Source of the DNA: a virus
Reading direction: 5' to 3' (one strand)
Length of the DNA: 8,000 nucleotides
Virus record (IMG/VR): IMGVR_UViG_3300008807_000528
Span: 1-8,000 of that record
Shown here: positions 1 to 8,000 of the stretch, piece by piece
Numbering within the stretch: the stretch's first letter is position 1
Layout: the number at the start of each line of letters is the position of its first letter
Position numbers and translations under genes: made by a program
Notes under the pieces: model-generated
The model's database searches: none
What the model was told of the DNA's origin: nothing
Seen by the model: the letters and a program-made list of their open reading frames with translations, nothing else

Positions 1-99
1 GTAACTGGGATCGATGGCCGCGAACATCTGGACCTGCAGGGGCAAGTTCGTGATGACCTTGCGGCCTTTTTTGAGCGCATCGAGCACGTGATACACGAC
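1..99. repeat. Terminal redundancy, copy 1 (identical to 7902-8000)
   Basis: Direct base-by-base comparison shows 99/99 identity at an offset of 7,901 nt. Confidence 0.97.
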
Positions 100-150
100 C
101 GCTTCATAACTCTTGCCAGAGCCGGGGATTCCTTCCAGTCCGTTGATCAT
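1..150 (-). CDS. Zot/pI-like assembly ATPase, N-terminal 50 codons (partial; this is the wrap-around continuation of 6675-8000)
   Basis: ATG at 150-148 overlaps the upstream TGA (149-147) as ATGA. The translation is MINGLEGIPGSGKSYEAVVYHVLDALKKGRKVITN..., with Walker A GIPGSGKS. It is in frame with the ORF that runs off the window at 8000. Confidence 0.85.
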   Translation of the reverse strand, partial: MINGLEGIPGSGKSYEAVVYHVLDALKKGRKVITNLPLQVQMFAAIDPSY

Positions 151-485
151 GATCCCAACCTTGTGAAGGGGATGAGCTGAAGCACAAGCCGGATACCGAT
201 GGCGGTCACGATGATCACAGACGCTTCACCGACGCCGAGCAGGCCAAGCACGTTGATCAACTCTGCAGGCAAGGTGCCCCAGGTGTTGGCGTAGGCGTTG
301 ATGCCGCTCAGATCGATGGCAGAGATTGCAGCAACGGCAATGTCCATGACCTGTTCGAAGGGCCAGCAGAAGGCATCGCGGATGAAGTCCCATGCGGCTT
401 GGAAAACGGCCACCATGAGTTGGCCGAACCACTGGGCCAGGGCGACGAACTTGCCGAGGATGGCGCTGATGAAATCACCGAGCAT
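147..485 (-). CDS. pVI-like hydrophobic minor virion/membrane protein (112 aa)
   Basis: The ORF sits between the pIII-like and pI-like genes, as gene VI does in Ff phages. It is very hydrophobic, with several putative TM segments. One nt separates it from the upstream stop, and its stop overlaps the Zot start as ATGA. Confidence 0.6.
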   Translation of the reverse strand: MLGDFISAILGKFVALAQWFGQLMVAVFQAAWDFIRDAFCWPFEQVMDIAVAAISAIDLSGINAYANTWGTLPAELINVLGLLGVGEASVIIVTAIGIRLVLQLIPFTRLGS

Positions 486-486
486 G

Positions 487-1929
487 TCAGCCCCCGAAAA
501 TCATGCGGCGCGCGGCCATGAGCGCGGTAATGATCAGGATGGCCTTTGCAACGTCCCACACCCAGCATGGCGGGGCGATTTCGTGCGTGCCAAGGTCTGC
601 CCAGGCGGGGCCTAGCGACAGGTCAAGCGTCCACGATGGACAAGTGCCGGAGGTCAGGTGCGTTGGCATCATCTGGCCGAGCGACGTCACCATGCTTGTC
701 TGCGCAATAGCGGCGGTTTTGGTCTGCCAAATGCCTACAAGCCCATCCGGATACTTGCGCGTATATAGCTCCGGAATGGGGGGCATGCTGGGGTCGGTGA
801 TGGTGCCCACGGGCTGGCACATGGCAGCATTTGGGTTATGGGCGCACACATCGGGCGTGGAAGGGGTTGCAGTGCCAGGAATGGGCGTGCTGGGGTTCGT
901 TGGCGTGGCCGGGTTGCCGGTGGTCACGGATGTACTGGTGATCGTGACGCCGTAGGGGTTGGCGGCATCATTTGTGGGGGTGATGGTCCACGTAGGTTGT
1001 GTGTACTGCTGGGGCGACGTGTTGGGGACTGGCACCGCCTCGCCAGTCACGGTAAGCGGACGGCTTGGCAGCGTTGGCGCGGGGTTGCTCACACCGATTG
1101 GCAAGTCCTGGGAGCCGGTCTGATCTGGCGGATTGATCGCCGGCACTGGATCAACAGGTATGGGCTTGCCCATCTGCTCAAGCAGCTTTGGATTGACCGG
1201 GATGGAAGCGAGTTGCTGAGCGAGTTGCTCCCACTGGTCAGCAGTGGGCTTGCTAGGTGGCGTACCAGCAAGCGGAATGGCACCATTAGCATCGAGGCAC
1301 CAGCCGGTGACCAAGCTGCCAATTGAGTTGTGCAAGGAGTAGTAGGTGCGGTTGTTATTGCAGCTACTGGCATTTGGAGTGGCGCGGGCGGTGCACCCGT
1401 TGGTACCGCAGGCACCAGGGAGCCAGTCGTTGTACATGGCCTTTGCCTGCGCAACCGTTTCGCCTGTGGAGAGCTTTGTAGCGTTCTCGTCAAAGCCATT
1501 TCCAGCGATGGCCTTGCGCTCAATGGTGTCCGTTGCAGGGTTGTATTCAAAGTCGGTGGCTTTGCCCTGCGCGTGGGCAGCATCGAGCCACTCTTTTGCA
1601 TAGTAGCCAGCGGTACCGAGAGCGAGGCCGCCGAGCACCAACGGCGCAATCGTGGCAGTGGCAGTGGCAGCGACTGCAGCGCCTGCAGCAACGCGCCATC
1701 CAACATTGATAGCGACAGCGCCGCCAAACTCGGCAATGTACACAGACGCAGTGCCGAGAACGTAGCCAGCGCGGGCTATGCCGGCAGCCACGCGAACACC
1801 ATTGACTGTCTGCACGGCCTGACCTGCAGCAGGGGTGAGAACAGCAGCGGTGGCGTACGCATAGTTGATGGACAGCAGGCCCAGTCCAAGGGCTGCAAGC
1901 GCGTTGCGCGCGATGGGTGCGACTCGCAT
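487..1929 (-). CDS. pIII-like adsorption / minor coat protein (480 aa from ATG 1929)
   Basis: It is the largest structural ORF and follows the coat gene. It has a signal-peptide-like N-terminus (MRVAPIARNALAALGLGLLSINYAYA), a long Pro/Thr-rich linker, Cys pairs, and a C-terminal membrane anchor (WDVAKAILIITALMAARRMIFGG). I prefer ATG 1929 because it overlaps the upstream small-ORF stop as TAATG. The 503-aa ORF-track start at 1998 lies inside that small ORF. Confidence 0.7.
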   Translation of the reverse strand: MRVAPIARNALAALGLGLLSINYAYATAAVLTPAAGQAVQTVNGVRVAAGIARAGYVLGTASVYIAEFGGAVAINVGWRVAAGAAVAATATATIAPLVLGGLALGTAGYYAKEWLDAAHAQGKATDFEYNPATDTIERKAIAGNGFDENATKLSTGETVAQAKAMYNDWLPGACGTNGCTARATPNASSCNNNRTYYSLHNSIGSLVTGWCLDANGAIPLAGTPPSKPTADQWEQLAQQLASIPVNPKLLEQMGKPIPVDPVPAINPPDQTGSQDLPIGVSNPAPTLPSRPLTVTGEAVPVPNTSPQQYTQPTWTITPTNDAANPYGVTITSTSVTTGNPATPTNPSTPIPGTATPSTPDVCAHNPNAAMCQPVGTITDPSMPPIPELYTRKYPDGLVGIWQTKTAAIAQTSMVTSLGQMMPTHLTSGTCPSWTLDLSLGPAWADLGTHEIAPPCWVWDVAKAILIITALMAARRMIFGG

Positions 1930-2027
1930 TAAATCCCCCTGAGTCCGAACAGAAATGAGACGGCGCCCAGGCCGCCAAGGAGGGCAACAATTGCCCAAAC
2001 GAGAGCGAGCTGAGCGCCGATGGCCAT
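1929..2027 (-). CDS. 32-aa hydrophobic peptide, possible pVII/pIX-like minor coat protein
   Basis: Hand translation gives MAIGAQLALVWAIVALLGGLGAVSFLFGLRGI. It starts 9 nt after the coat gene stop, and its TAA overlaps the pIII-like ATG. It consists of a single TM-like segment. It is too short for the ORF track. Confidence 0.45.
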   Translation of the reverse strand: MAIGAQLALVWAIVALLGGLGAVSFLFGLRGI

Positions 2028-2036
2028 GGCTGCGCC

Positions 2037-2270
2037 TTAGATCTTGCGGATCACGCGCTTGCCCAGGTCAGGACCCTTGAACACCAGGGCAATGCCGACG
2101 ATTGCCAGGGCGATGACGCCCAGGGCTGCAGAGATGCCGGTGATGTCGATGCTGTCCAGAACGTCCAGCAGGGGGTTGTCGCCGGCTGCAGCGTGGGCCG
2201 ATGCGGCCAGCATGCCGGTAGCGGCCACCAGGGCCAGATTGCGGGTCTTGTTGAATGCGGTCTTGAACAT
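2037..2270 (-). CDS. Major coat protein (pVIII-like, 77-aa precursor)
   Basis: A signal peptide ends in AHA (MFKTAFNKTRNLALVAATGMLAASAHA). The mature N-terminus is acidic (AAGDNPLLDVLDSID), followed by a hydrophobic helix and a basic C-terminus (KGPDLGKRVIRKI). A good RBS, AAGGAAAGAACC, precedes the ATG. Confidence 0.8.
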   Translation of the reverse strand: MFKTAFNKTRNLALVAATGMLAASAHAAAGDNPLLDVLDSIDITGISAALGVIALAIVGIALVFKGPDLGKRVIRKI

Positions 2271-2348
2271 GGTTCTTTCCTTTGAAGTTAAGGTTTCGGT
2301 GGCGAGGAATCGACACCGCGAAGCCCTTGCAGGCTTGACGCTGGCGAC

Positions 2349-2672
2349 TCAGATTTTTTTAACGATGCCCTTTGCGATGCCCGCAGCCCAACCGGCGAAG
2401 TACGCGCCGAAGACGAGCGCGGCGCCCATGCTTCCAACGAGAACGATGCTTTCGGGGGTGATGCCGAGTTGCTCAAGATCGAGCGTGAACTCAGGGGGCG
2501 TGTTGACCTCCTCGACGGTCATGAGGAGGTGCGTGCCAACGGGACAGGCGTACTGGTCGCCGGTCTTCATGGCTTCGCCAGTAACCCAAGGAAGCATGTA
2601 AGCCCCAGTAGGGTGGACAGCCAGCCCCGGGCCGCCAGGGGTTGAGAACGAAAGGACAATGCAGGTAGCCAT
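2349..2672 (-). CDS. 107-aa hypothetical protein with a C-terminal TM helix and a coat-like basic tail
   Basis: The ORF starts 3 nt after the upstream stop. Its C-terminus, IVLVGSMGAALVFGAYFAGWAAGIAKGIVKKI, resembles the coat protein's TM segment plus basic tail. Function is unknown. Confidence 0.6.
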   Translation of the reverse strand: MATCIVLSFSTPGGPGLAVHPTGAYMLPWVTGEAMKTGDQYACPVGTHLLMTVEEVNTPPEFTLDLEQLGITPESIVLVGSMGAALVFGAYFAGWAAGIAKGIVKKI

Positions 2673-2675
2673 TAC

Positions 2676-2807
2676 TCAGCCCTGCCAATCGTCAACGGGT
2701 GAGCGTTCGCCGCACTCTGGACACTCGGGGTGTGAGCTATCGTCCAGCTCATCGCAAGGCACAGAAGCGCCACAAACAGGGCAAGTGTTTTCGGGTTCAT
2801 CGCTCAT
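2676..2807 (-). CDS. 43-aa zinc-ribbon-like protein (CPxC...CPxC)
   Basis: Hand translation gives MSDEPENTCPVCGASVPCDELDDSSHPECPECGERSPVDDWQG. It exactly fills the gap between flanking genes: the ATG is 3 nt after the upstream TGA and the stop is 3 nt before the next ATG. It is not in the ORF track because of its length. Confidence 0.5.
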   Translation of the reverse strand: MSDEPENTCPVCGASVPCDELDDSSHPECPECGERSPVDDWQG

Positions 2808-2810
2808 GGC

Positions 2811-3005
2811 TCAGTGCAGTTCATCGAGGTTGACCACCAGAGGCCGGTGGAATGGTTCGGTGTGATCTTCGATCAGCTGGGCGCAGCTTTCGAGGTCTTC
2901 GACCACACCGGCTTCGCGTAGCAACATGACCCACTCCGGTTGCCCATCCTCAAAGGACGGGGCCAGGAACTGGCCTGTTGTGCCGGACTGGATCACGAAG
3001 CGCAT
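2811..3005 (-). CDS. 64-aa hypothetical acidic protein
   Basis: ATG at 3005-3003 overlaps the upstream TGA by 1 nt (TGATG). There are no hydrophobic segments and no family that I recognise. Confidence 0.55.
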   Translation of the reverse strand: MRFVIQSGTTGQFLAPSFEDGQPEWVMLLREAGVVEDLESCAQLIEDHTEPFHRPLVVNLDELH

Positions 3006-3328
3006 CACGCGGCCTTACGTTCGGGGGCAGCGGGCTTGATCGCCAGCAGGGTCACCTTGCTGGTGTTGTCGGCACCGGCCACGATGTCGAATTCGCAATC
3101 GCAGACGACGCCCGTGACGGGCCAAGACGCCTTGAGGTGCGCCCACTTGTCGAACTCGGCAGAGGTGCCGCACTTGAAGGGGCGGGTGACGACGCCGATG
3201 CTCTGGCCGTTGCTGGACTCGCCCAGGTCCACCGACAGGTGGAACGTGGTGGAGTCGTAGCCACGGCCTTCCATTTCGCCTTTGCTGGACTTGATACCGT
3301 GCAGCACGGCCTTGTTTTGAAATCGCAT
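3005..3328 (-). CDS. Putative ssDNA-binding protein (gene V / RstB position), 107 aa
   Basis: It lies immediately downstream of rep, has a typical size, is soluble, and is preceded by the RBS AAGGAAACACACC. The call rests on position and size only. Confidence 0.55.
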   Translation of the reverse strand: MRFQNKAVLHGIKSSKGEMEGRGYDSTTFHLSVDLGESSNGQSIGVVTRPFKCGTSAEFDKWAHLKASWPVTGVVCDCEFDIVAGADNTSKVTLLAIKPAAPERKAA

Positions 3329-3349
3329 GGTGTGTTTCCTTTTGCGGCC

Positions 3350-4570
3350 TTAGATGGGCTGGAGTCCGACACGGCCATAGCCGGAGCCCGTTGAACGTTT
3401 GAAGGCGCCTTGGTACGCGCGCTGGATTTCGTTGGTGGTGAACTTCTGCAAGCGGCCCGGGGCCTTCTGGTTGCTCACCAGTTCGATGAACTCATCGGCA
3501 CCGAGGAACTGGAAGGCGAGGGCGAGAGAAGGGGCGGCGGTATCGCGAAGCCACTGCACGTTTCGCTTGACTTCGGCGAGGATGGTTTCGACGGAGAGGC
3601 GTGGCTTTGTGGGCACAGGTTCGGGCACAAAAGAGCCTTCCGCCTCGCGAAGGATGGAGGCATGCCAGTCGCTGGCACCGGCAAAGAAATCGGCAGGGCG
3701 GCGGAGCATGTCGGCACCGAGGACGCGCAGCTTGTTGCCGTAACGAAGCTCAGCGCGGAGCCATTGGCTTTCATCCTTCGGGCCGAACAGCTGGATGCCT
3801 TTTTCGTACACGTTGGTTTGCTTGCCGGCTTCCTTCGATCCGAAGTAGAAGGACCGGCCCTTGCCGCCCCGAGCGTTGCACCAGTCACCGACCTGATTAC
3901 AGCTTGGGCGGTTGCTGTGGTGGTCCATCAGCCCGGCCTTGTAGTCCTCGACAACGCGCTCCATTCCGCCTCGCATGCCGTCGAAGAAATCGAGCGCCAG
4001 ATCCACGCGGGTAAGCTTGGCATCGGTGCGCTCGACGATGGCGGCAAGGCGGTCGTTAAAGCCGTGGTGTGCGAAGGTGCACGCGGTGCCGTAGAGGTTG
4101 CAGTGAATGGTGTTGGCCTGCGCCTGTTGGCGTGGGCTTTCACCGCTGGAAAGGAAGCCCACCCAACCGCATTCCACATCGTTGCGCACGATGGACCAGC
4201 GGAAGCGATAGAAGTCATGGCCCTTGCGCAGTTCGGGATAGACGCTGAAATCGGGGCCGAGAGCTGCGCATGCCTGTTCGGCGAGGGTCTTGGCTTGGGC
4301 CGAGGCTGAGAACTCGCCATCGGGCATGTCCCGGAGCAGCTTGGCGAGACGGGCATAGCGGTCCAGGTGCATGGCTTCATCGGACCACCGGGCACCATCG
4401 TGCAAGGGGAACAGATCATCGACCGTTGGCACTGGCGCGTTGCGCAGTGCGACGGAGAAGCGAACCCAGTCGATATGCACCAGGGTGTTGGACTTAAGGC
4501 GTTCGGCCTTGAGGCGCAATTTCACCTCGCTGCCATCGAGCACCAAGTCCGATTGCTTTGCACGGGTCAT
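3350..4570 (-). CDS. Rolling-circle replication initiator, Rep_trans-type (RstA / pT181 RepC-like), 406 aa
   Basis: Motifs read by eye are LTRVDLALDFFDG, SFYFGSKEAGKQTNVYEKG and WLRAELRYGNK. They match the R.D.a.D / Y.Gs....r.YeK / R.E.r pattern I associate with replication initiation factor (Rep_trans) proteins of filamentous phages and RCR plasmids. The start overlaps the upstream stop as ATGA. Confidence 0.85.
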   Translation of the reverse strand: MTRAKQSDLVLDGSEVKLRLKAERLKSNTLVHIDWVRFSVALRNAPVPTVDDLFPLHDGARWSDEAMHLDRYARLAKLLRDMPDGEFSASAQAKTLAEQACAALGPDFSVYPELRKGHDFYRFRWSIVRNDVECGWVGFLSSGESPRQQAQANTIHCNLYGTACTFAHHGFNDRLAAIVERTDAKLTRVDLALDFFDGMRGGMERVVEDYKAGLMDHHSNRPSCNQVGDWCNARGGKGRSFYFGSKEAGKQTNVYEKGIQLFGPKDESQWLRAELRYGNKLRVLGADMLRRPADFFAGASDWHASILREAEGSFVPEPVPTKPRLSVETILAEVKRNVQWLRDTAAPSLALAFQFLGADEFIELVSNQKAPGRLQKFTTNEIQRAYQGAFKRSTGSGYGRVGLQPI

Positions 4571-5400
4571 GCTTGCTCCAAGGACAGGGTCTCCCCGTGA
4601 TTACCATCGGGGAGCATCGACAGCCGCGCTTCGCGCCCGGCCACTTCCCCGCGAGGCGGGGCCCCTTCTGCCGGGCGCTGCGCTTCCAGTGCCCATTGCT
4701 TGAACGCTGCACGCTTTGAGGCCGCGCGTTTGGGCGCAGCCAGGTCGGTGTAACTGCGGTCCTGGCCAGCTGTAACAGCGAGCCGGCGCACTTGGCACTT
4801 GGCGGCCAGGGCAACGAGGAAGCGAGCGAAGGCCGGCGGCGTGGCCTCGCGTTCGGCAGGGGACAGCTTCATGGTGCGGCCCGCAGCTCGGTGTAACTGG
4901 ACTGGCAGTTCGCCGAGGTCTTCGCGGCTGCAGCCGACGATGTAGAGGTATGTAGGCTTGGGTGCAGGATGGCCCCACCAGCCCTGATCGACCAGCAGGG
5001 TCCAGCCGCCGAAGGCATCGACCTTGCCGGGGTGTGGCAGGTCGGCGGCATGCCACAGGGTGCTGCCCCATGGGTGTTCCAGCACACCGCCAACGCGGCG
5101 GATCTGTTCGACAGCGAACAGGGCCAGGGCCTTTTCGTCGGGGCGTGGTTTTGCGAAGTGGCGCAGGCGGCCCCAGCCACGGCAGGGCGGATGGCACACG
5201 ACTGGATTGCTGCCGGTGTAGCCGCGTGCATCGCGCTTGGCGTCCCACACGTCATCCACCAGGTCGAAGTAACAGGAATCGGAGCGGGCGAAGAGGACGG
5301 ACACCGCAGTTCGCTGTAACAGCGGACCAGGGCGCTGAGGCCATGTGAGCCATGCGCCGGACTGGCCTTCGATTGCTGGGGGTGTGACGCTGGAGAGCAT
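4567..5400 (-). CDS. 277-aa protein of unknown function; first gene of the replication operon, with a PPC-containing motif series
   Basis: It is a long ORF in the operon orientation, and its stop is coupled to the rep ATG as ATGA. Motifs are VLFARSDS, VVCHPPCRGWGRL, VLEHPWGS and DQGWWGHPAPKPTYLYIVG. No strong RBS precedes ATG 5400, so the exact start is uncertain. Confidence 0.7.
   Translation of the reverse strand: MLSSVTPPAIEGQSGAWLTWPQRPGPLLQRTAVSVLFARSDSCYFDLVDDVWDAKRDARGYTGSNPVVCHPPCRGWGRLRHFAKPRPDEKALALFAVEQIRRVGGVLEHPWGSTLWHAADLPHPGKVDAFGGWTLLVDQGWWGHPAPKPTYLYIVGCSREDLGELPVQLHRAAGRTMKLSPAEREATPPAFARFLVALAAKCQVRRLAVTAGQDRSYTDLAAPKRAASKRAAFKQWALEAQRPAEGAPPRGEVAGREARLSMLPDGNHGETLSLEQA
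4748..4778 (+). repeat. Bipartite site GTGTAACTG-N13-CTGTAACAG (copy A, inside the 277-aa CDS)
   Basis: GTGTAACTG is at 4748-4756 and CTGTAACAG at 4770-4778. The same two 9-mers with the same 13-nt spacing recur at 6537-6567. Confidence 0.85.
4891..4899 (+). repeat. GTGTAACTG motif copy
   Basis: Exact 9-mer in the same orientation as the other copies. Confidence 0.8.
5314..5322 (+). repeat. CTGTAACAG motif copy (within GCTGTAACAGC); a partial copy AGTAACAG lies at 5268-5275
   Basis: Exact 9-mer. The 11-nt odd palindrome GCTGT-A-ACAGC also occurs at 4769-4779 and 6558-6568. Confidence 0.8.
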
Positions 5401-5517
5401 GCGGTGTACAGTCCGGTTACGTAGCCAAAACTTGTACGTAGTGACTTCTTACTACGTTGGGCCGCATAGTAGTGGAAATTCACTACGTCCTGAAACCGCT
5501 CGAAACAGGAGCTTTCG
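5401..5517. promoter_or_regulatory. Divergent control region with repeated ACGTAGTG / CACTACGT operator-like half-sites
   Basis: This is a 117-nt gap between the divergently transcribed 277-aa gene and the repressor-like gene. One inverted repeat is ACGTAGT-N8-ACTACGT (5436-5457) and another is GTAGTG-N6-CACTAC (5469-5486). An extra TACGTAG sits at 5418-5424. The RBS AGGAG (5507-5511) precedes ATG 5518. A possible plus-strand promoter is GTGACT (5441-5446) with CATAGT (5465-5470) at 18-nt spacing. Confidence 0.6.
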
Positions 5518-5952
5518 ATGAACCACCTTGAAGAACTGAACGCCCTTATTGACAAGGCCGCAGAAAAGGCAGGCAGCGATTACAAGCTCGCTGCAATGCT
5601 TGGAATGCAGCGTCAAAAGATCAGCAACATGCGGCACGGTCGCATGACGGCAACGCCAGAGGATCAGGCGCTATTCGCCTCTGTTGCTGGATTGAATGCT
5701 ATTGAAGTGCTAGCACGCGCAATGGTGCAGAAGCACGAAGGAACCCCAAAAGGCGACAGGTTGATGCGTGCCCTGGGAAAGGGTTTGCTAGCGACTGGCG
5801 CGGCAGTCGCTACCGCTGGAGCAAACGCAGCGGCGATCTTTTCATCGATCCACCCGGCTAAAACCGTTGTTGACTTGATACGATGTATAAAATTGTTAAA
5901 TCCGTTTGGACTTGTCAATAGTGAAATAATATCGAAAAAGGCCCCTGTCTAG
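5518..5952 (+). CDS. HTH (Cro/CI-type) repressor-like regulator, 144 aa
   Basis: It is the only plus-strand gene and is divergent from the replication operon, as rstR is in CTX-type phages. An HTH-like segment reads DYKLAAMLGMQRQKISNMRHGR. It has a good RBS. The C-terminal part contains an Ala/Gly-rich hydrophobic stretch, and the last ~25 codons fall in an AT-rich island. Confidence 0.75.
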   Translation: MNHLEELNALIDKAAEKAGSDYKLAAMLGMQRQKISNMRHGRMTATPEDQALFASVAGLNAIEVLARAMVQKHEGTPKGDRLMRALGKGLLATGAAVATAGANAAAIFSSIHPAKTVVDLIRCIKLLNPFGLVNSEIISKKAPV

Positions 5953-5963
5953 GGGCCTTTTTT
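5935..5963. terminator. Bidirectional rho-independent terminator T1 (AGGCCCCT-GTCT-AGGGGCCT flanked by A5 and T6)
   Basis: An 8-bp GC-rich stem (5939-5946 with 5951-5958) and a 4-nt loop are followed by a T-run on the plus strand and preceded by an A-run. It lies between the convergent repressor gene (its stop, 5950-5952, is inside the hairpin) and the 80-aa ORF. Confidence 0.75.
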
Positions 5964-5977
5964 CATACAGAGCCGTT

Positions 5978-6220
5978 CTACCTAGCGCGATTGCTTCTGT
6001 CCTGTTGCGGCTGAACAGATAGAGATGGCGGTGAGGAAGGGCGCTGCTGTTGAATCGCCTGAGCTGCAGCGTTGCTACTGGCAACCTCTAGACGGTGCGA
6101 AATGAGGGCCTCGTAACCAAAAAACAGCATGGTGCCGCCGAGGAAAATACCCAACGCCAGCTTCACCACATCAACGAGAAAAAACCAGGTGCTATCGGGC
6201 CGGTAGATGATTCGGTGCAT
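5978..6220 (-). CDS. 80-aa single-pass membrane protein, candidate accessory (moron) gene
   Basis: ATG at 6220 is preceded by a strong RBS, AGGAGGAAGGGGC. The sequence MHRIIYRPDSTWFFLVDVVKLALGIFLGGTMLFFGYEALI... has one TM segment and a Gln/Ser/Pro-rich tail. The 117-aa ORF-track version would start inside or upstream of terminator T2, so I reject it. Confidence 0.55.
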   Translation of the reverse strand: MHRIIYRPDSTWFFLVDVVKLALGIFLGGTMLFFGYEALISHRLEVASSNAAAQAIQQQRPSSPPSLSVQPQQDRSNRAR

Positions 6221-6260
6221 GCCCCTTCCTCCTTTTGGCAAGCACGATAGCAGCAAAAAC

Positions 6261-6285
6261 AAAGGCCCCGAGCAGGGGCCTTTTT
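6261..6285 (-). terminator. Rho-independent terminator T2 ending the long minus-strand operon (also has a T-run on the plus strand)
   Basis: AAAGGCCCC (6261-6269) pairs with GGGGCCTTT (6275-6283) around the loop GAGCA. On the minus strand the hairpin is followed by TTTGTTTTTG. The stem sequence is nearly identical to that of T1. Confidence 0.65.
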
Positions 6286-6339
6286 CATTGGGGTGAGCAT
6301 CGAGGGCATAACACCGGCCCGGATAGAACAACAGTTGAC

Positions 6340-6356
6340 ATGGGGCGTCGCCCCAT
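6340..6356. other. 17-nt odd palindrome ATGGGGCG-T-CGCCCCAT, a potential ssDNA hairpin in the noncoding region
   Basis: The palindrome is perfect around the central T. It sits in the 125-nt noncoding stretch 6286-6410, next to a C4/C4/C4 tract (6351-6366). Confidence 0.5.
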
Positions 6357-6410
6357 ACCCCACCCCACCACTACGACACAAGGTCTCCGTTCCAGGGGAC
6401 CCCTTGCCGA

Positions 6411-6509
6411 TCAGTCAAAAGGGTTGCGGACCTTGCGCCAAAGGTAGCCGCCGAACGCACCAAGAACCACCGCGACAGCGCAGCTTGCCAACATTTCAAA
6501 CAGGTCCAT
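6411..6509 (-). CDS. 32-aa hydrophobic peptide (hypothetical)
   Basis: Hand translation gives MDLFEMLASCAVAVVLGAFGGYLWRKVRNPFD. The RBS GGAG lies 5 nt upstream of the ATG. It has one TM-like segment and is the last ORF before terminator T2. Confidence 0.4.
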   Translation of the reverse strand: MDLFEMLASCAVAVVLGAFGGYLWRKVRNPFD

Positions 6510-6536
6510 GAGCGCTCCAGTGCAACAGCCAGATGA

Positions 6537-6594
6537 GTGTAACTGAGCACCGCGGCCGCTGTAACAGCAGACGTGGCGCAGCTGGGTGTAACTG
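6537..6594 (+). repeat. Intergenic triple-motif cluster: GTGTAACTG-N13-CTGTAACAG-N18-GTGTAACTG
   Basis: The motifs lie at 6537-6545, 6559-6567 and 6586-6594, inside the 88-nt gap between two micro-ORFs. This is copy B of the bipartite site seen at 4748-4778. Confidence 0.85.
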
Positions 6595-6597
6595 AAC

Positions 6598-6678
6598 TCA
6601 CAGACCGATGAACCGAAGAACCTTGCGCACGATGGAGCGCACCACGGTGTTGACGATGGTGCGCCAAAGGTACTTCAT
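6598..6678 (-). CDS. 26-aa basic amphipathic peptide (hypothetical), translationally coupled to zot
   Basis: ATG 6678-6676 overlaps the Zot TGA (6677-6675) as ATGA. The peptide is MKYLWRTIVNTVVRSIVRKVLRFIGL. Evidence beyond the coupling is weak. Confidence 0.3.
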   Translation of the reverse strand: MKYLWRTIVNTVVRSIVRKVLRFIGL

Positions 6679-8000
6679 TGCAGGTTGCCCCGGCCACCGG
6701 CATAGGAGGGGTTTTTGAGGCGCAGCGCAGCAGTGAGGTCTGCAGGCGATATCTGGCCCTCTTGCGGCCGCTGAAACTCGGGCATGGGAACGGTGCGCGC
6801 TGGTGCTGCAGCGGCGCCATGGCCCTGGCGATCGCGGCCCACTTCGACCACGATAGGCTTGTCTGCGGACCACTGGGCCATGGCAGGGGCATCACAGGTG
6901 ATGGCGCGCGGCTTGCCTTCCCATCGGAGGGTGCCGGCGCAGTCGGTGAGGGGTTGCCACACGTAGCCCATCTTTTGGAGGTCGCGGCTGTCCATCGTGC
7001 TCACGCGCTGGTTACTGTTGCTGATGGTGAACGTGTACACGTCCTGGCCCCGAAAGGTAATGCGGCCAGTCAGGTGCATGGTCTTGCCGGCGTAGGGCTC
7101 AGGCGTAGCGTTTGGATCGGGCTCAGAGGGCCTTTGCACAGGTGAGGGTGCCGTGCCATTGGCCAACTGGTTTGCAGGGATTGGAGAGGCGACAGGCGGG
7201 GTTGCTGGGGCCGTTGCCTTGCTCACCTTTGCCGATGGTGCAGGCTTGGGCTTTTTAGCCTTGTCGGAGGGCCAGAGGTACCAGACGGCTGCAGCGGCAG
7301 TGAGGCCCCACCAGATCCAGGTGAAACGCCGAAATTTGACGATAAAGGGGGTAACGTCCGATGCGGCCGATTCGGCCACGCTGTTGCCTTGCGTGTGGCT
7401 TTTGTAGAGCTGGAAATACTGGGGTTTGTAGGGGCGCTCCTCTTCGCTGATGACGGCCCCTCGGTAGCCCGCATGGACCTTGCGGATGTAGCAGCCCTTT
7501 TTGCCGAGGATGTCCGCTTTTCGGCAGCGGATCAGCATGGCGATGAGGCGGGCGATGGGCTGGTTCATGTCCCGGAAACTCTGGGTCATGAGCAGCACAT
7601 CGGCGTTGAAGTGGCGGTGCAGCTTGAACCACTCCACCACCTGTTTATCGGTGCCCTGCTGAGGGATGGGCACGTGGCATTCGTCGATGACGAAGAGAGG
7701 TCCCTGACCGGTGTAAGGGTGCTTCCAGTCGCTGAGGTAGTCCCACACATGGCCGAACACCGATACGCCTTCGCCGGGCTGTTCTTTGCGGCCATCTTCA
7801 AACAGGGTGACAGCTTGACCGTTGCCCTTGTCGTCGACGGCTGCGGCGTTCCAGACGCCAAGCACTGGGCGAGGCTTCACCAGCACTTCAACCAGGTCGG
7901 TGTAACTGGGATCGATGGCCGCGAACATCTGGACCTGCAGGGGCAAGTTCGTGATGACCTTGCGGCCTTTTTTGAGCGCATCGAGCACGTGATACACGAC
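6675..8000 (-). CDS. Zot/pI-like assembly ATPase (5' end runs off the window; the full gene is 458 aa once 1-150 is joined)
   Basis: It has Walker B-like LFVIDECH and a central TM segment, FTWIWWGLTAAAAVWYLW, followed by a Pro/Ala-rich periplasmic domain. The Walker A motif lies in the wrap-around part (1-150). The ORF-track start at 7997 is an internal GTG (Val19). Confidence 0.9.
   Translation of the reverse strand, partial: VVYHVLDALKKGRKVITNLPLQVQMFAAIDPSYTDLVEVLVKPRPVLGVWNAAAVDDKGNGQAVTLFEDGRKEQPGEGVSVFGHVWDYLSDWKHPYTGQGPLFVIDECHVPIPQQGTDKQVVEWFKLHRHFNADVLLMTQSFRDMNQPIARLIAMLIRCRKADILGKKGCYIRKVHAGYRGAVISEEERPYKPQYFQLYKSHTQGNSVAESAASDVTPFIVKFRRFTWIWWGLTAAAAVWYLWPSDKAKKPKPAPSAKVSKATAPATPPVASPIPANQLANGTAPSPVQRPSEPDPNATPEPYAGKTMHLTGRITFRGQDVYTFTISNSNQRVSTMDSRDLQKMGYVWQPLTDCAGTLRWEGKPRAITCDAPAMAQWSADKPIVVEVGRDRQGHGAAAAPARTVPMPEFQRPQEGQISPADLTAALRLKNPSYAGGRGNLQ
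7900..7908 (+). repeat. GTGTAACTG motif copy (within the 17-mer CCAGGTCGGTGTAACTG, 7892-7908); its last 7 nt recur at 1-7
   Basis: Exact 9-mer. The 17-mer is identical to 4740-4756. Confidence 0.8.
7902..8000. repeat. Terminal redundancy, copy 2 (identical to 1-99)
   Basis: Direct base-by-base comparison shows 99/99 identity at an offset of 7,901 nt. Confidence 0.97.

Follow-up and report, generated by a model that had tools for sequence, protein, structure and literature searches.

A strand-polarised DNA site that accompanies a tail-bearing gene cassette of filamentous phages

We analysed an 8,000-nt stretch of viral DNA, positions 1 to 8,000 of IMG/VR record IMGVR_UViG_3300008807_000528 (hereafter the window), in which a short word recurs on one strand within and between genes, and compared it with about 25 related phages and prophages. 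Among these the site is found only together with one cassette, which carries a gene of the type that encodes a 277-aa protein in the window, and across the sequences compared it appears and disappears with the tail-bearing form of that gene. We tentatively read the copies as replication-linked, cis-acting sites on which the protein encoded by the cassette, as the putative binder, would dock; this is the reading we favour, at somewhat less than an even chance. The window is an inovirus (filamentous phage), whose minus strand encodes Zot, a Rep_trans initiator, a Phage_DNA_bind-like protein, coat proteins and a pIII-like protein, while the gene for a 144-aa helix-turn-helix (HTH) protein lies on the plus strand, divergent from the others. 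Homologues of the window proteins are on record from Acidovorax, Variovorax, Xenophilus and Ramlibacter.

The site and the cassette that carries it

The original prediction described two related 9-mers confined to a single strand, and the positions that it gave are exact in the window: GTGTAACTG occurs at 4748, 4891, 6537, 6586 and 7900, and CTGTAACAG at 4770, 5314 and 6559, each time within GCTGTAACAGC, all on the plus strand. GTGTAACTG is the most repeated 9-mer of the genome. The claim that the repeats are far above chance is borne out by their shared hexamer TGTAAC, which occurs 8 times on the plus strand and never on the minus strand, against a mean of 1.36 in dinucleotide shuffles, none of which (0 of 200) reached 8. 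Since the genes of the window lie on the minus strand, the site reads C[AT]GTTACA[CG] on the sense (viral) strand. It extends beyond 9 nt to 17-19 nt, with the sense-strand consensus C-W-GTWACA-S-CGR-S-CTGG; a logo of 89 distinct instances from 14 related genomes reads c-g-C-[A/T]-G-T-[T>A]-A-C-A-[G/C]-C-G-[A/G]-[C/G]-C-t-G-g and is conserved to about +14. Variants include CAGTTACACSSG in L081 and GTAACAGC in L293. Extended 15-mers of the site were not found in a literature search.

The core of the 277-aa protein gene and its tail together form an indel cassette, present or absent as a unit in three near-isogenic pairs. In the window the cassette occupies 4684..5338 on the minus strand, 655 bp vs 38 bp in L002. 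In the pair L004/L003, 704 bp stand against 38 bp between flanks that are 95-96% identical, and all 6 copies of L004 (5 GTTACA and 1 GTAACA) fall within the 704-bp cassette, with 0 in the cassette-less L003. The third pair, L049/L051, behaves in the same way, the cassette-less L051 being without arrays. Among 80 IMG/VR loci found through Rep, the sense word was most enriched (at least 5 copies) in L004, L049 and L002, the first two of which encode a homologue of the 277-aa protein as well; L001, without the 277-aa gene but with a Rep that is 89% identical, has one GTTACA. Homologues of the core were found at 83 loci. The 18 of them with a C-terminal tail of at least 31 aa, which represent 14 distinct contigs or loci, have 1-5 sense-strand GTWACA copies in the tail, and their array-bearing tails end in KRAAF[KR]xWA. 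The remaining 65 short-tail or tail-less loci, including L094 with a core 72% identical, have zero copies in the tail; most of them lie on 30-60-kb double-stranded DNA (dsDNA) phage contigs. L128 is an outlier, with a 32-aa extension that is unrelated, and without copies. The tail-array pattern recurs in seven more prophages, taken from genomes and metagenome-assembled genomes (MAGs).

The layout within the gene is regular: site 1 lies about 25 nt before the core, site 2 is 423 nt downstream, and the array follows 114-121 nt further on. The commonest array has four copies at 22-27-22 nt, and the range across cassettes is 2-5 copies. The window has two copies in the tail and a cluster of three in the intergenic region after zot (27, 22). 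Counted as tail plus intergenic copies, this gives 2+3 for the window, 1-2+2 for L091/L092 and 0+4 for L002, and genomes with a full four-copy tail array are usually without intergenic copies; short tail arrays are apparently offset by intergenic copies elsewhere. We scanned for copies outside the cassette with a matrix trained only on within-cassette copies, at a threshold of at least 16 bits, and found 13 on the sense and 2 on the antisense strand in 121 kb of cassette-bearing genomes, compared with 3 sense and 0 antisense in 574 kb of cassette-less relatives. Alternative iteron-like arrays were searched for in the cassette-less relatives, and none was found.

These comparisons bear on two other explanations. 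The copies could be a functionless residue of tandem duplication (of a 22-49-nt unit) and gene conversion, hitch-hiking with the tail. The arrays are indeed homologous DNA with partly conserved spacers, and since the unit length is not a multiple of three, the word would fall into several reading frames automatically. Against this, the distant L081 keeps the 9-mer CAGTTACAC in 5 of 6 copies with differing spacers and spacing (38, 25, 42), solitary copies persist at fixed codons with rare codons, and the independent outside copies are biased 13 to 2 towards the sense strand, so that we consider a mere residue quite improbable. A similarly small probability attaches to the view that the copies serve recombination or mobility and carry the cassette from one phage genome to another. 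Three near-isogenic pairs differ by its presence or absence, it stands beside different Rep families and in both orientations, and it has copies near both ends. Its junctions lie off the motif copies, however, and the empty sites consist of 38-148 bp of unrelated DNA with no motif and no target duplication; nor is the site tied to the serine recombinase, since the 26 resolvase-positive, cassette-less loci show no site enrichment save L002.

The original prediction would have been undermined by an equal frequency of the motif in the host, and this is not what the flanks contain. The flanking host DNA examined, 86 kb in all and derived from Acidovorax, Variovorax, Ramlibacter and MAGs, has 7 GTWACA on both strands together (0.08 per kb) and no site of at least 14 bits. 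A genome-wide polar oligomer of the host, of the Chi, KOPS or uptake-sequence type, has strand polarity in its favour and nothing else; at this sampling it is refuted, and we give it a negligible probability. The terminal array copy GTWACASCGACCTGGCTGC closes the array in 9 IMG/VR contigs only, all from this phage group, and has 32 matches in a metagenome collection: 5 lie in or beside cassette arrays, 1 is an intergenic pair, and the rest are singletons, which by our estimate are close to chance in number. A looser pattern, GTTACA-N13-16-GTTACA-N16-21-GTWACA, was uninformative in IMG/VR, where the matches listed were chance matches in AT-rich contigs. An unrelated phage contig, L230 (IMGVR_UViG_3300044961_000248), has at 2500-2880 a dense both-strand cluster of GGTGTAACC and GGTTACACC words, which has the look of iterons or operators belonging to a different system.

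Individual copies and selection on the DNA

Copies were scored in bits as the match to the site matrix, and those of the window described here all lie on the minus strand. Within the 277-aa protein gene, site 1 (5305..5323, sense GCTGTTACAGCGAACTGCG, 24.0 bits) lies about 25 nt upstream of the start of the conserved core, holds CTGTAACAG at 5314 and is read LLQ with a TTA codon; in L088, L093, L087 and L090 it coincides with the start codon or lies shortly before it. Site 2 (4882..4900, 23.4 bits), which holds GTGTAACTG at 4891, lies in the conserved core, where it is read PVQLHRA with the rare codons TTA and CGA. Of the 15 other mapped tail-bearing loci, 13 keep it at this codon, with TTA (the exceptions are L332 and L333), and it is missing from the tail-less L094. 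The distance of 423 nt between the two sites is shared by seven lineages. Of the two tail array copies, the one at 4761..4779 (sense GCTGTTACAGCTGGCCAGG, read AVTA, CTGTAACAG at 4770, 20.2 bits) is homologous to the penultimate copy of L002, L087, L088 and L085, and lies 22 nt upstream of the last linker copy at 4739..4757 (sense GCAGTTACACCGACCTGGC, read SYTDLA, GTGTAACTG at 4748, 25.9 bits). The partial copy that the original prediction noticed at 5268 is real; as AGTAACAG it belongs to the weak match CCTGTTACTTCGACCTGGT (5258..5276, 14.8 bits), which spans the invariant DSCYFDLV codons of the core. The Cys-Tyr pair is invariant in the family, and protein constraint alone could therefore account for this copy.

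Outside the gene, a three-copy array (6528..6595) lies between two small open reading frames (ORFs) after zot, with copies at 6586, 6559 and 6537 spaced by 27 and 22 nt and scoring 20.1, 20.8 and 15.5 bits. Homologous arrays are the four-copy 22-27-22 array that L002 has at 7049-7120 and those in the tails of L004 and L082. The flanking minus-strand ORFs, 6413-6511 and 6598-6678, encode 32 and 26 aa, hydrophobic or basic. A single copy (7891..7909, sense CCAGTTACACCGACCTGGT, GTGTAACTG at 7900, 24.7 bits) is read PSYTDLV near the N-terminus of zot (7997-6675). A near-copy stands at the same position of zot in the cassette-less L046 and L051, and the window copy may therefore be partly protein-driven. 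The window has a 99-nt terminal direct repeat (1-99 = 7902-8000) and is thus a circular genome of 7901 bp, in which the copy at 7900 continues into position 1.

The two predicted pairs of GTGTAACTG-N13-CTGTAACAG, 22 nt apart, are present at 4748/4770 and 6537/6559 and turn out to be paralogous pieces of a single 22-27-22 array. Their spacers, which had been called unrelated, do differ inside the window but are partly conserved across relatives. Spacings among the relatives are dominated by 22 nt (22 times) and 27 nt (12 times), and the 22-nt spacing, whose persistence among relatives had been suggested as a check, is kept in at least 12 lineages.

Judged from these alignments, the site is selected as DNA and not for protein sequence, as had been proposed, because the same word occurs in two or three reading frames. 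The earlier readings SYT, QLH, AVT and LLQ are correct, and one frame of the word of about 16 nt gives LQRPG or QLHRA, another SYTDLA or CYSDLA. DNA-level selection is likewise indicated because the motif forces rare TTA leucine codons, which number 3 of 203 Leu codons in the genome, 2 of these 3 lying inside motif copies (at 5319 and 4896), and because site 2 keeps its codon across the mapped tail-bearing loci. In the array alignment, too, conservation is at least 80% in the motif columns of the last two copies, whereas the spacers drift, which points in the same direction; mean third-position identity over the 277-aa gene is 0.54. To regard the repeats as an array for a DNA-binding protein was a reasonable reading.

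The cassette protein and the neighbouring initiator genes

The 277-aa protein is encoded at 4567..5400 on the minus strand, with a core at residues 31-205 (4786-5310) and a stop codon that overlaps the rep start. It matches phrog_12600 (unknown function), a family of more than 2000 homologues, all annotated as hypothetical, and gave zero matches in Pfam, NCBIfam, PADLOC, PDB sequence and PDB profile searches; a Pfam search of 61 family members found no match either, PF00145 included. Structure modelling suggests that the cassette product resembles a reduced C5-cytosine methyltransferase without a target-recognition domain. The AlphaFold2 (AF2) model of the core reached a predicted local distance difference test (pLDDT) score of 91 and a predicted template modelling score (pTM) of 0.88, and all 50 PDB matches listed by Foldseek were DNA C5-methyltransferases, with probability up to 0.99. 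The PC and E-H-P motifs are invariant, HPPCR and LEHP being so in 39 and 61 homologues, and these two together with QGWWGH..KPTY resemble C5-methyltransferase motifs IV, VI and VIII, aligned by eye and by the fold match; the motif-IV cysteine would be Cys73. The target-recognition domain is missing, with about 25 residues between the motif VIII-like and motif IX-like segments. In the microvirus Ebor, a homologue has been designated a putative DNA methylase on the basis of HHpred, without an activity being assigned to it (PMC11980548). Among the loci that we fetched there is one C5-methyltransferase gene only.

The tail consists of a flexible linker and a conserved basic helix, KRAASKRAAFKQWA, at residues about 223-240 (4681-4734), with the signature KRAAFKxWA. 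In the full-length AF2 model, residues about 205-222 have pLDDT below 70 and stand between the core, above 90, and the terminal helix; it is this linker that the site array (4739-4779) encodes. A protein search with the tail alone returned zero candidates. On the reading of the copies as docking sites, the C-terminal tail helix would read the sites and bring the methyltransferase-like core onto phage DNA beside the rolling-circle initiator gene, where the recruited core might control replication or gene expression, or modify nearby DNA. We infer each of these steps, that is, the binding of the protein to the site, the tail helix as reader, and the effect on replication or modification. M.SsoII and M.EcoRII, which combine an N-terminal HTH, full S-adenosylmethionine (SAM) motifs and a target-recognition domain with a single palindromic promoter site, offer a partial parallel, in that a C5-methyltransferase fold (here predicted) has an appended segment that reads a separate regulatory site (here putative) near its own gene. 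The cassette differs from them in its C-terminal helix, in an array located in 3' coding DNA, and in having neither motif I nor a target-recognition domain.

Across the loci compared, the protein family is syntenic with rolling-circle initiator genes: phrog_12600 members lie directly upstream of Rep_trans, REP_ORF2-G2P, Phage_CRI and Phage_GPA genes and of annotated microvirus replication initiators, in inoviruses, microviruses and one P2-like contig. The loci are the window (4567-5400), L094, L095, L106, L110, L123, L136, L144, L149, L290, L291, L331, L333, L083 and L297. In Pseudomonas phage Meltemi a family member stands just upstream of terL.

In the window the Rep_trans initiator gene (3350..4570, minus strand) is directly downstream of the 277-aa gene, and the original prediction had considered that the repeats might be iterons or an origin for this initiator. 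Direct repeats of 17-19 nt just before rep, spaced by about two helical turns, another cluster within the main intergenic region and the synteny of the 277-aa family with rep genes would all suit Rep iterons or part of a plus-strand origin. The rep ORF itself has zero copies, though, and the site does not follow Rep: besides L001, with its single GTTACA at 89% Rep identity, L003 and L005 (Rep 74%) have none, whereas the site is present with Rep_trans proteins only 54-56% identical and with G2P-type Reps. Overall the cassette carriers have a Rep_trans that is 54-100% identical or a REP_ORF2-G2P (L081, L290, L291, L331 and L333). No AT-rich unwinding element was found beside the arrays, where GC is 0.58-0.72, the sole AT-rich stretch being at 5841-5911. 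In addition, several identical nick sites would truncate rolling-circle products. Of the roles considered here, that of iterons or origin for Rep_trans appears least compatible with the comparisons, which largely refute it, and we regard it as very improbable. A pT181-type origin inside the rep gene was also rejected, as 3350-4570 has no copy and the arrays have no conserved hairpin.

Two classical arrangements are instructive at this point. In R6K, pSC101 and P1 incC/incA, iterons co-vary with their Rep, and extra clusters can titrate the binder; the present arrays are similar in being clustered one-orientation direct repeats of 17-22 bp with extra clusters elsewhere, but the site does not depend on the Rep family and is missing from phages with closely related Reps. 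In phage lambda, ori comprises four iterons within the O gene, followed by an AT-rich unwinding element, and O is the proven initiator with an N-terminal DNA-binding domain. The cassette resembles lambda O/ori as a gene-plus-site module, with some four direct sites of about 19 bp roughly two helical turns apart in the linker-coding DNA of the putative binder. It is unlike lambda in that the protein is methyltransferase-like, a rolling-circle Rep is already present, the asymmetric sites have no AT-rich element next to them and the binder is predicted.

The copies might instead be operators of another regulator, a host protein or a phage repressor, acting as orientation-dependent roadblocks. The stoperators of mycobacteriophage L5, which lie between genes and are bound by the immunity repressor gp71, are the obvious model, being likewise asymmetric, present in many copies per small genome and uniformly oriented with respect to transcription. 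Since all identified hosts are related (Comamonadaceae), a host factor common to them is possible. However, the copies are mostly in one gene and in coding DNA rather than intergenic, the carriers use two unrelated repressor families, and neither the cassette-less phages of the same host group nor the host flanks have the site. The 144-aa repressor, one of the binders originally proposed, meets the same difficulty. Operator-like inverted repeats ACGTAGTGACTTCTTACTACGT and GTAGTGGAAATTCACTACGT, plus TACGTAG twice, are present separately at 5415-5488, in the interval that separates the 277-aa gene from the divergent gene of the 144-aa HTH protein, and are probably that repressor's own sites. Operators of this kind are distinctly unlikely in our assessment. 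A promoter reading with GTTACA as -35 was rejected for lack of a matching -10, and a scan of 4500-7000 gave no promoter-like site. A LexA box was also rejected; CTGT/ACAG half-sites are present at a 1-nt spacing, but those of a LexA box are 8 nt apart. Nor does the presence of the Zn-ribbon protein, also proposed as a binder, track the motif. The site is thus, as far as genome comparison goes, independent of Rep, resolvase, repressor and host, and among the four roles first proposed, that of targets of the 277-aa protein fits the comparative data best, while those involving Rep, the repressor and the Zn-ribbon protein are not supported.

Strand orientation, genome setting and significance

All high-scoring copies lie on the sense strand of the local gene, which invites explanations at the level of RNA or of single-stranded DNA (ssDNA). 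In L293 (10001-10735) and L294 the 277-aa gene and zot are convergent, the structural genes lying on the other strand from the 277-aa gene, and the array follows the gene; the single outside copy of L293 (12335) shares its sense strand with the structural genes. The last array copy of several lineages has its central T flipped to A (GTAACA), which makes that copy a perfect inverted repeat of the previous one, as in the hairpin of L082.

Being always on the sense strand, the copies would be transcript elements if they acted as RNA, through which the methyltransferase-like protein (compare DNMT2-type) or another factor could control translation or stability of its own and the rep messages. The orientation of the outside copy of L293, the overlap of site 1 with the translation start region in several phages and the frequent translational coupling of the 277-aa gene to rep are all in keeping with this. 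The L293 argument is one copy, however, no conserved secondary structure and nothing relevant in Rfam were found, and the central T-to-A flips together with the near-palindromic CTGTWACAG core suggest duplex recognition by a symmetric reader. We therefore judge RNA-level elements unlikely.

Just as unlikely, in our view, is an ssDNA signal on the packaged strand, either a complementary-strand origin or a packaging signal, that is modular and linked to the cassette by chance. Its strengths are the strict strand polarity, the location of one cluster in the intergenic region after zot (in Ff phages the packaging signal and origins lie in the intergenic region), and the ability of adjacent copies to pair, as in L082, where 10729-10768 forms a 12-bp hairpin as ssDNA (z = -3.5). 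As ssDNA the arrays of the window fold no better than shuffles (z +0.2 and 0.0), nor does that of L002 (z = -0.7), and there is no conserved structure. Moreover, the cassette-less close relatives lack such an element or a substitute array, the L293 array is on the strand opposite to the structural genes, and the copies of L004, L049 and L082 are confined to the coding region. Packaging sites of dsDNA phages, such as P1 pacA, with seven TGATCA/G hexamers whose use is governed by DNA methylation, and P22 pac in gene 3, are similar in having repeated short words within the gene of the recognition protein (here putative). They differ in that pac is cut by terminase, and inoviruses package ssDNA without terminase.

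Several observations weigh against the reading of the copies as docking sites for the cassette protein. Strict sense orientation is not required by a duplex binder, and an ssDNA or RNA function fits it at least equally well; spacings of 22 and 27 nt leave the copies on more than one face of the helix. Most copies are inside the gene, whose tail is the array, and the co-occurrence is therefore partly trivial, while the independent lineages with copies outside the cassette number only about 5-6. L002 retains a four-copy intergenic array without the gene, for which a recent loss would be needed. The methyltransferase link is itself weak, with Foldseek E values of 4e-3 or worse and TM scores of 0.3-0.5; hhalign against E. 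coli Dcm gave nothing, and the SAM-binding motif I (FxGxG) is missing, the position reading LFARSDSCY.

Some further features of the genome deserve mention. The peptide KGQSGAGML (DNA AAGGGCCAATCCGGCGCNGG) is kept in three lineages in a leader ORF before rep, directly left of the cassette junction, at 5339-5370 in the window, 455-486 in L003 (with the palindrome CCGGCGCCGG), 1000-1028 in L002 and 540-580 in L051; this region is a candidate plus-strand origin or nick region. An AT-rich stretch at 5868-5900 (GC 0.28), within the 3' end of the 144-aa ORF, contains a dif-like TGTATAA-AATTGTTAAAT whose XerD-arm-like half matches at 8 of 11 positions, and may be an XerCD-type phage attachment site (attP). 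The window is without an integrase; its relatives encode a small serine recombinase, and a tRNA-Ser gene is the integration site of L082. Beyond the two short ORFs that flank the intergenic array there are terminator-like hairpins at 6359-6337, 6283-6261 and 5962-5935.

The cassette is a self-contained accessory module of filamentous phages, and the identified hosts are Comamonadaceae, among them Acidovorax delafieldii and Variovorax sp. PBL-E5. It is possible, if rather doubtful, that it represents a previously undescribed replication-linked control module, in which a short C-terminal helix would bring a methyltransferase-derived protein that has no target-recognition domain to an array in its own linker-coding DNA, with phrog_12600 as a general, so far unrecognised partner of rolling-circle initiators in Inoviridae, Microviridae and P2-like phages. 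If the docking-site reading is right, it would give a testable handle on a large phage protein family of no known function that stands beside initiators in both ssDNA and dsDNA phages, and the tail-bearing subfamily would supply a defined DNA site for binding, methylome and genetic work. The cassette would also be a clear case of a cis-acting array that lies within the gene of the very protein that probably reads it, and would illustrate the way in which small ssDNA phages fit regulatory DNA into their protein-coding sequences.

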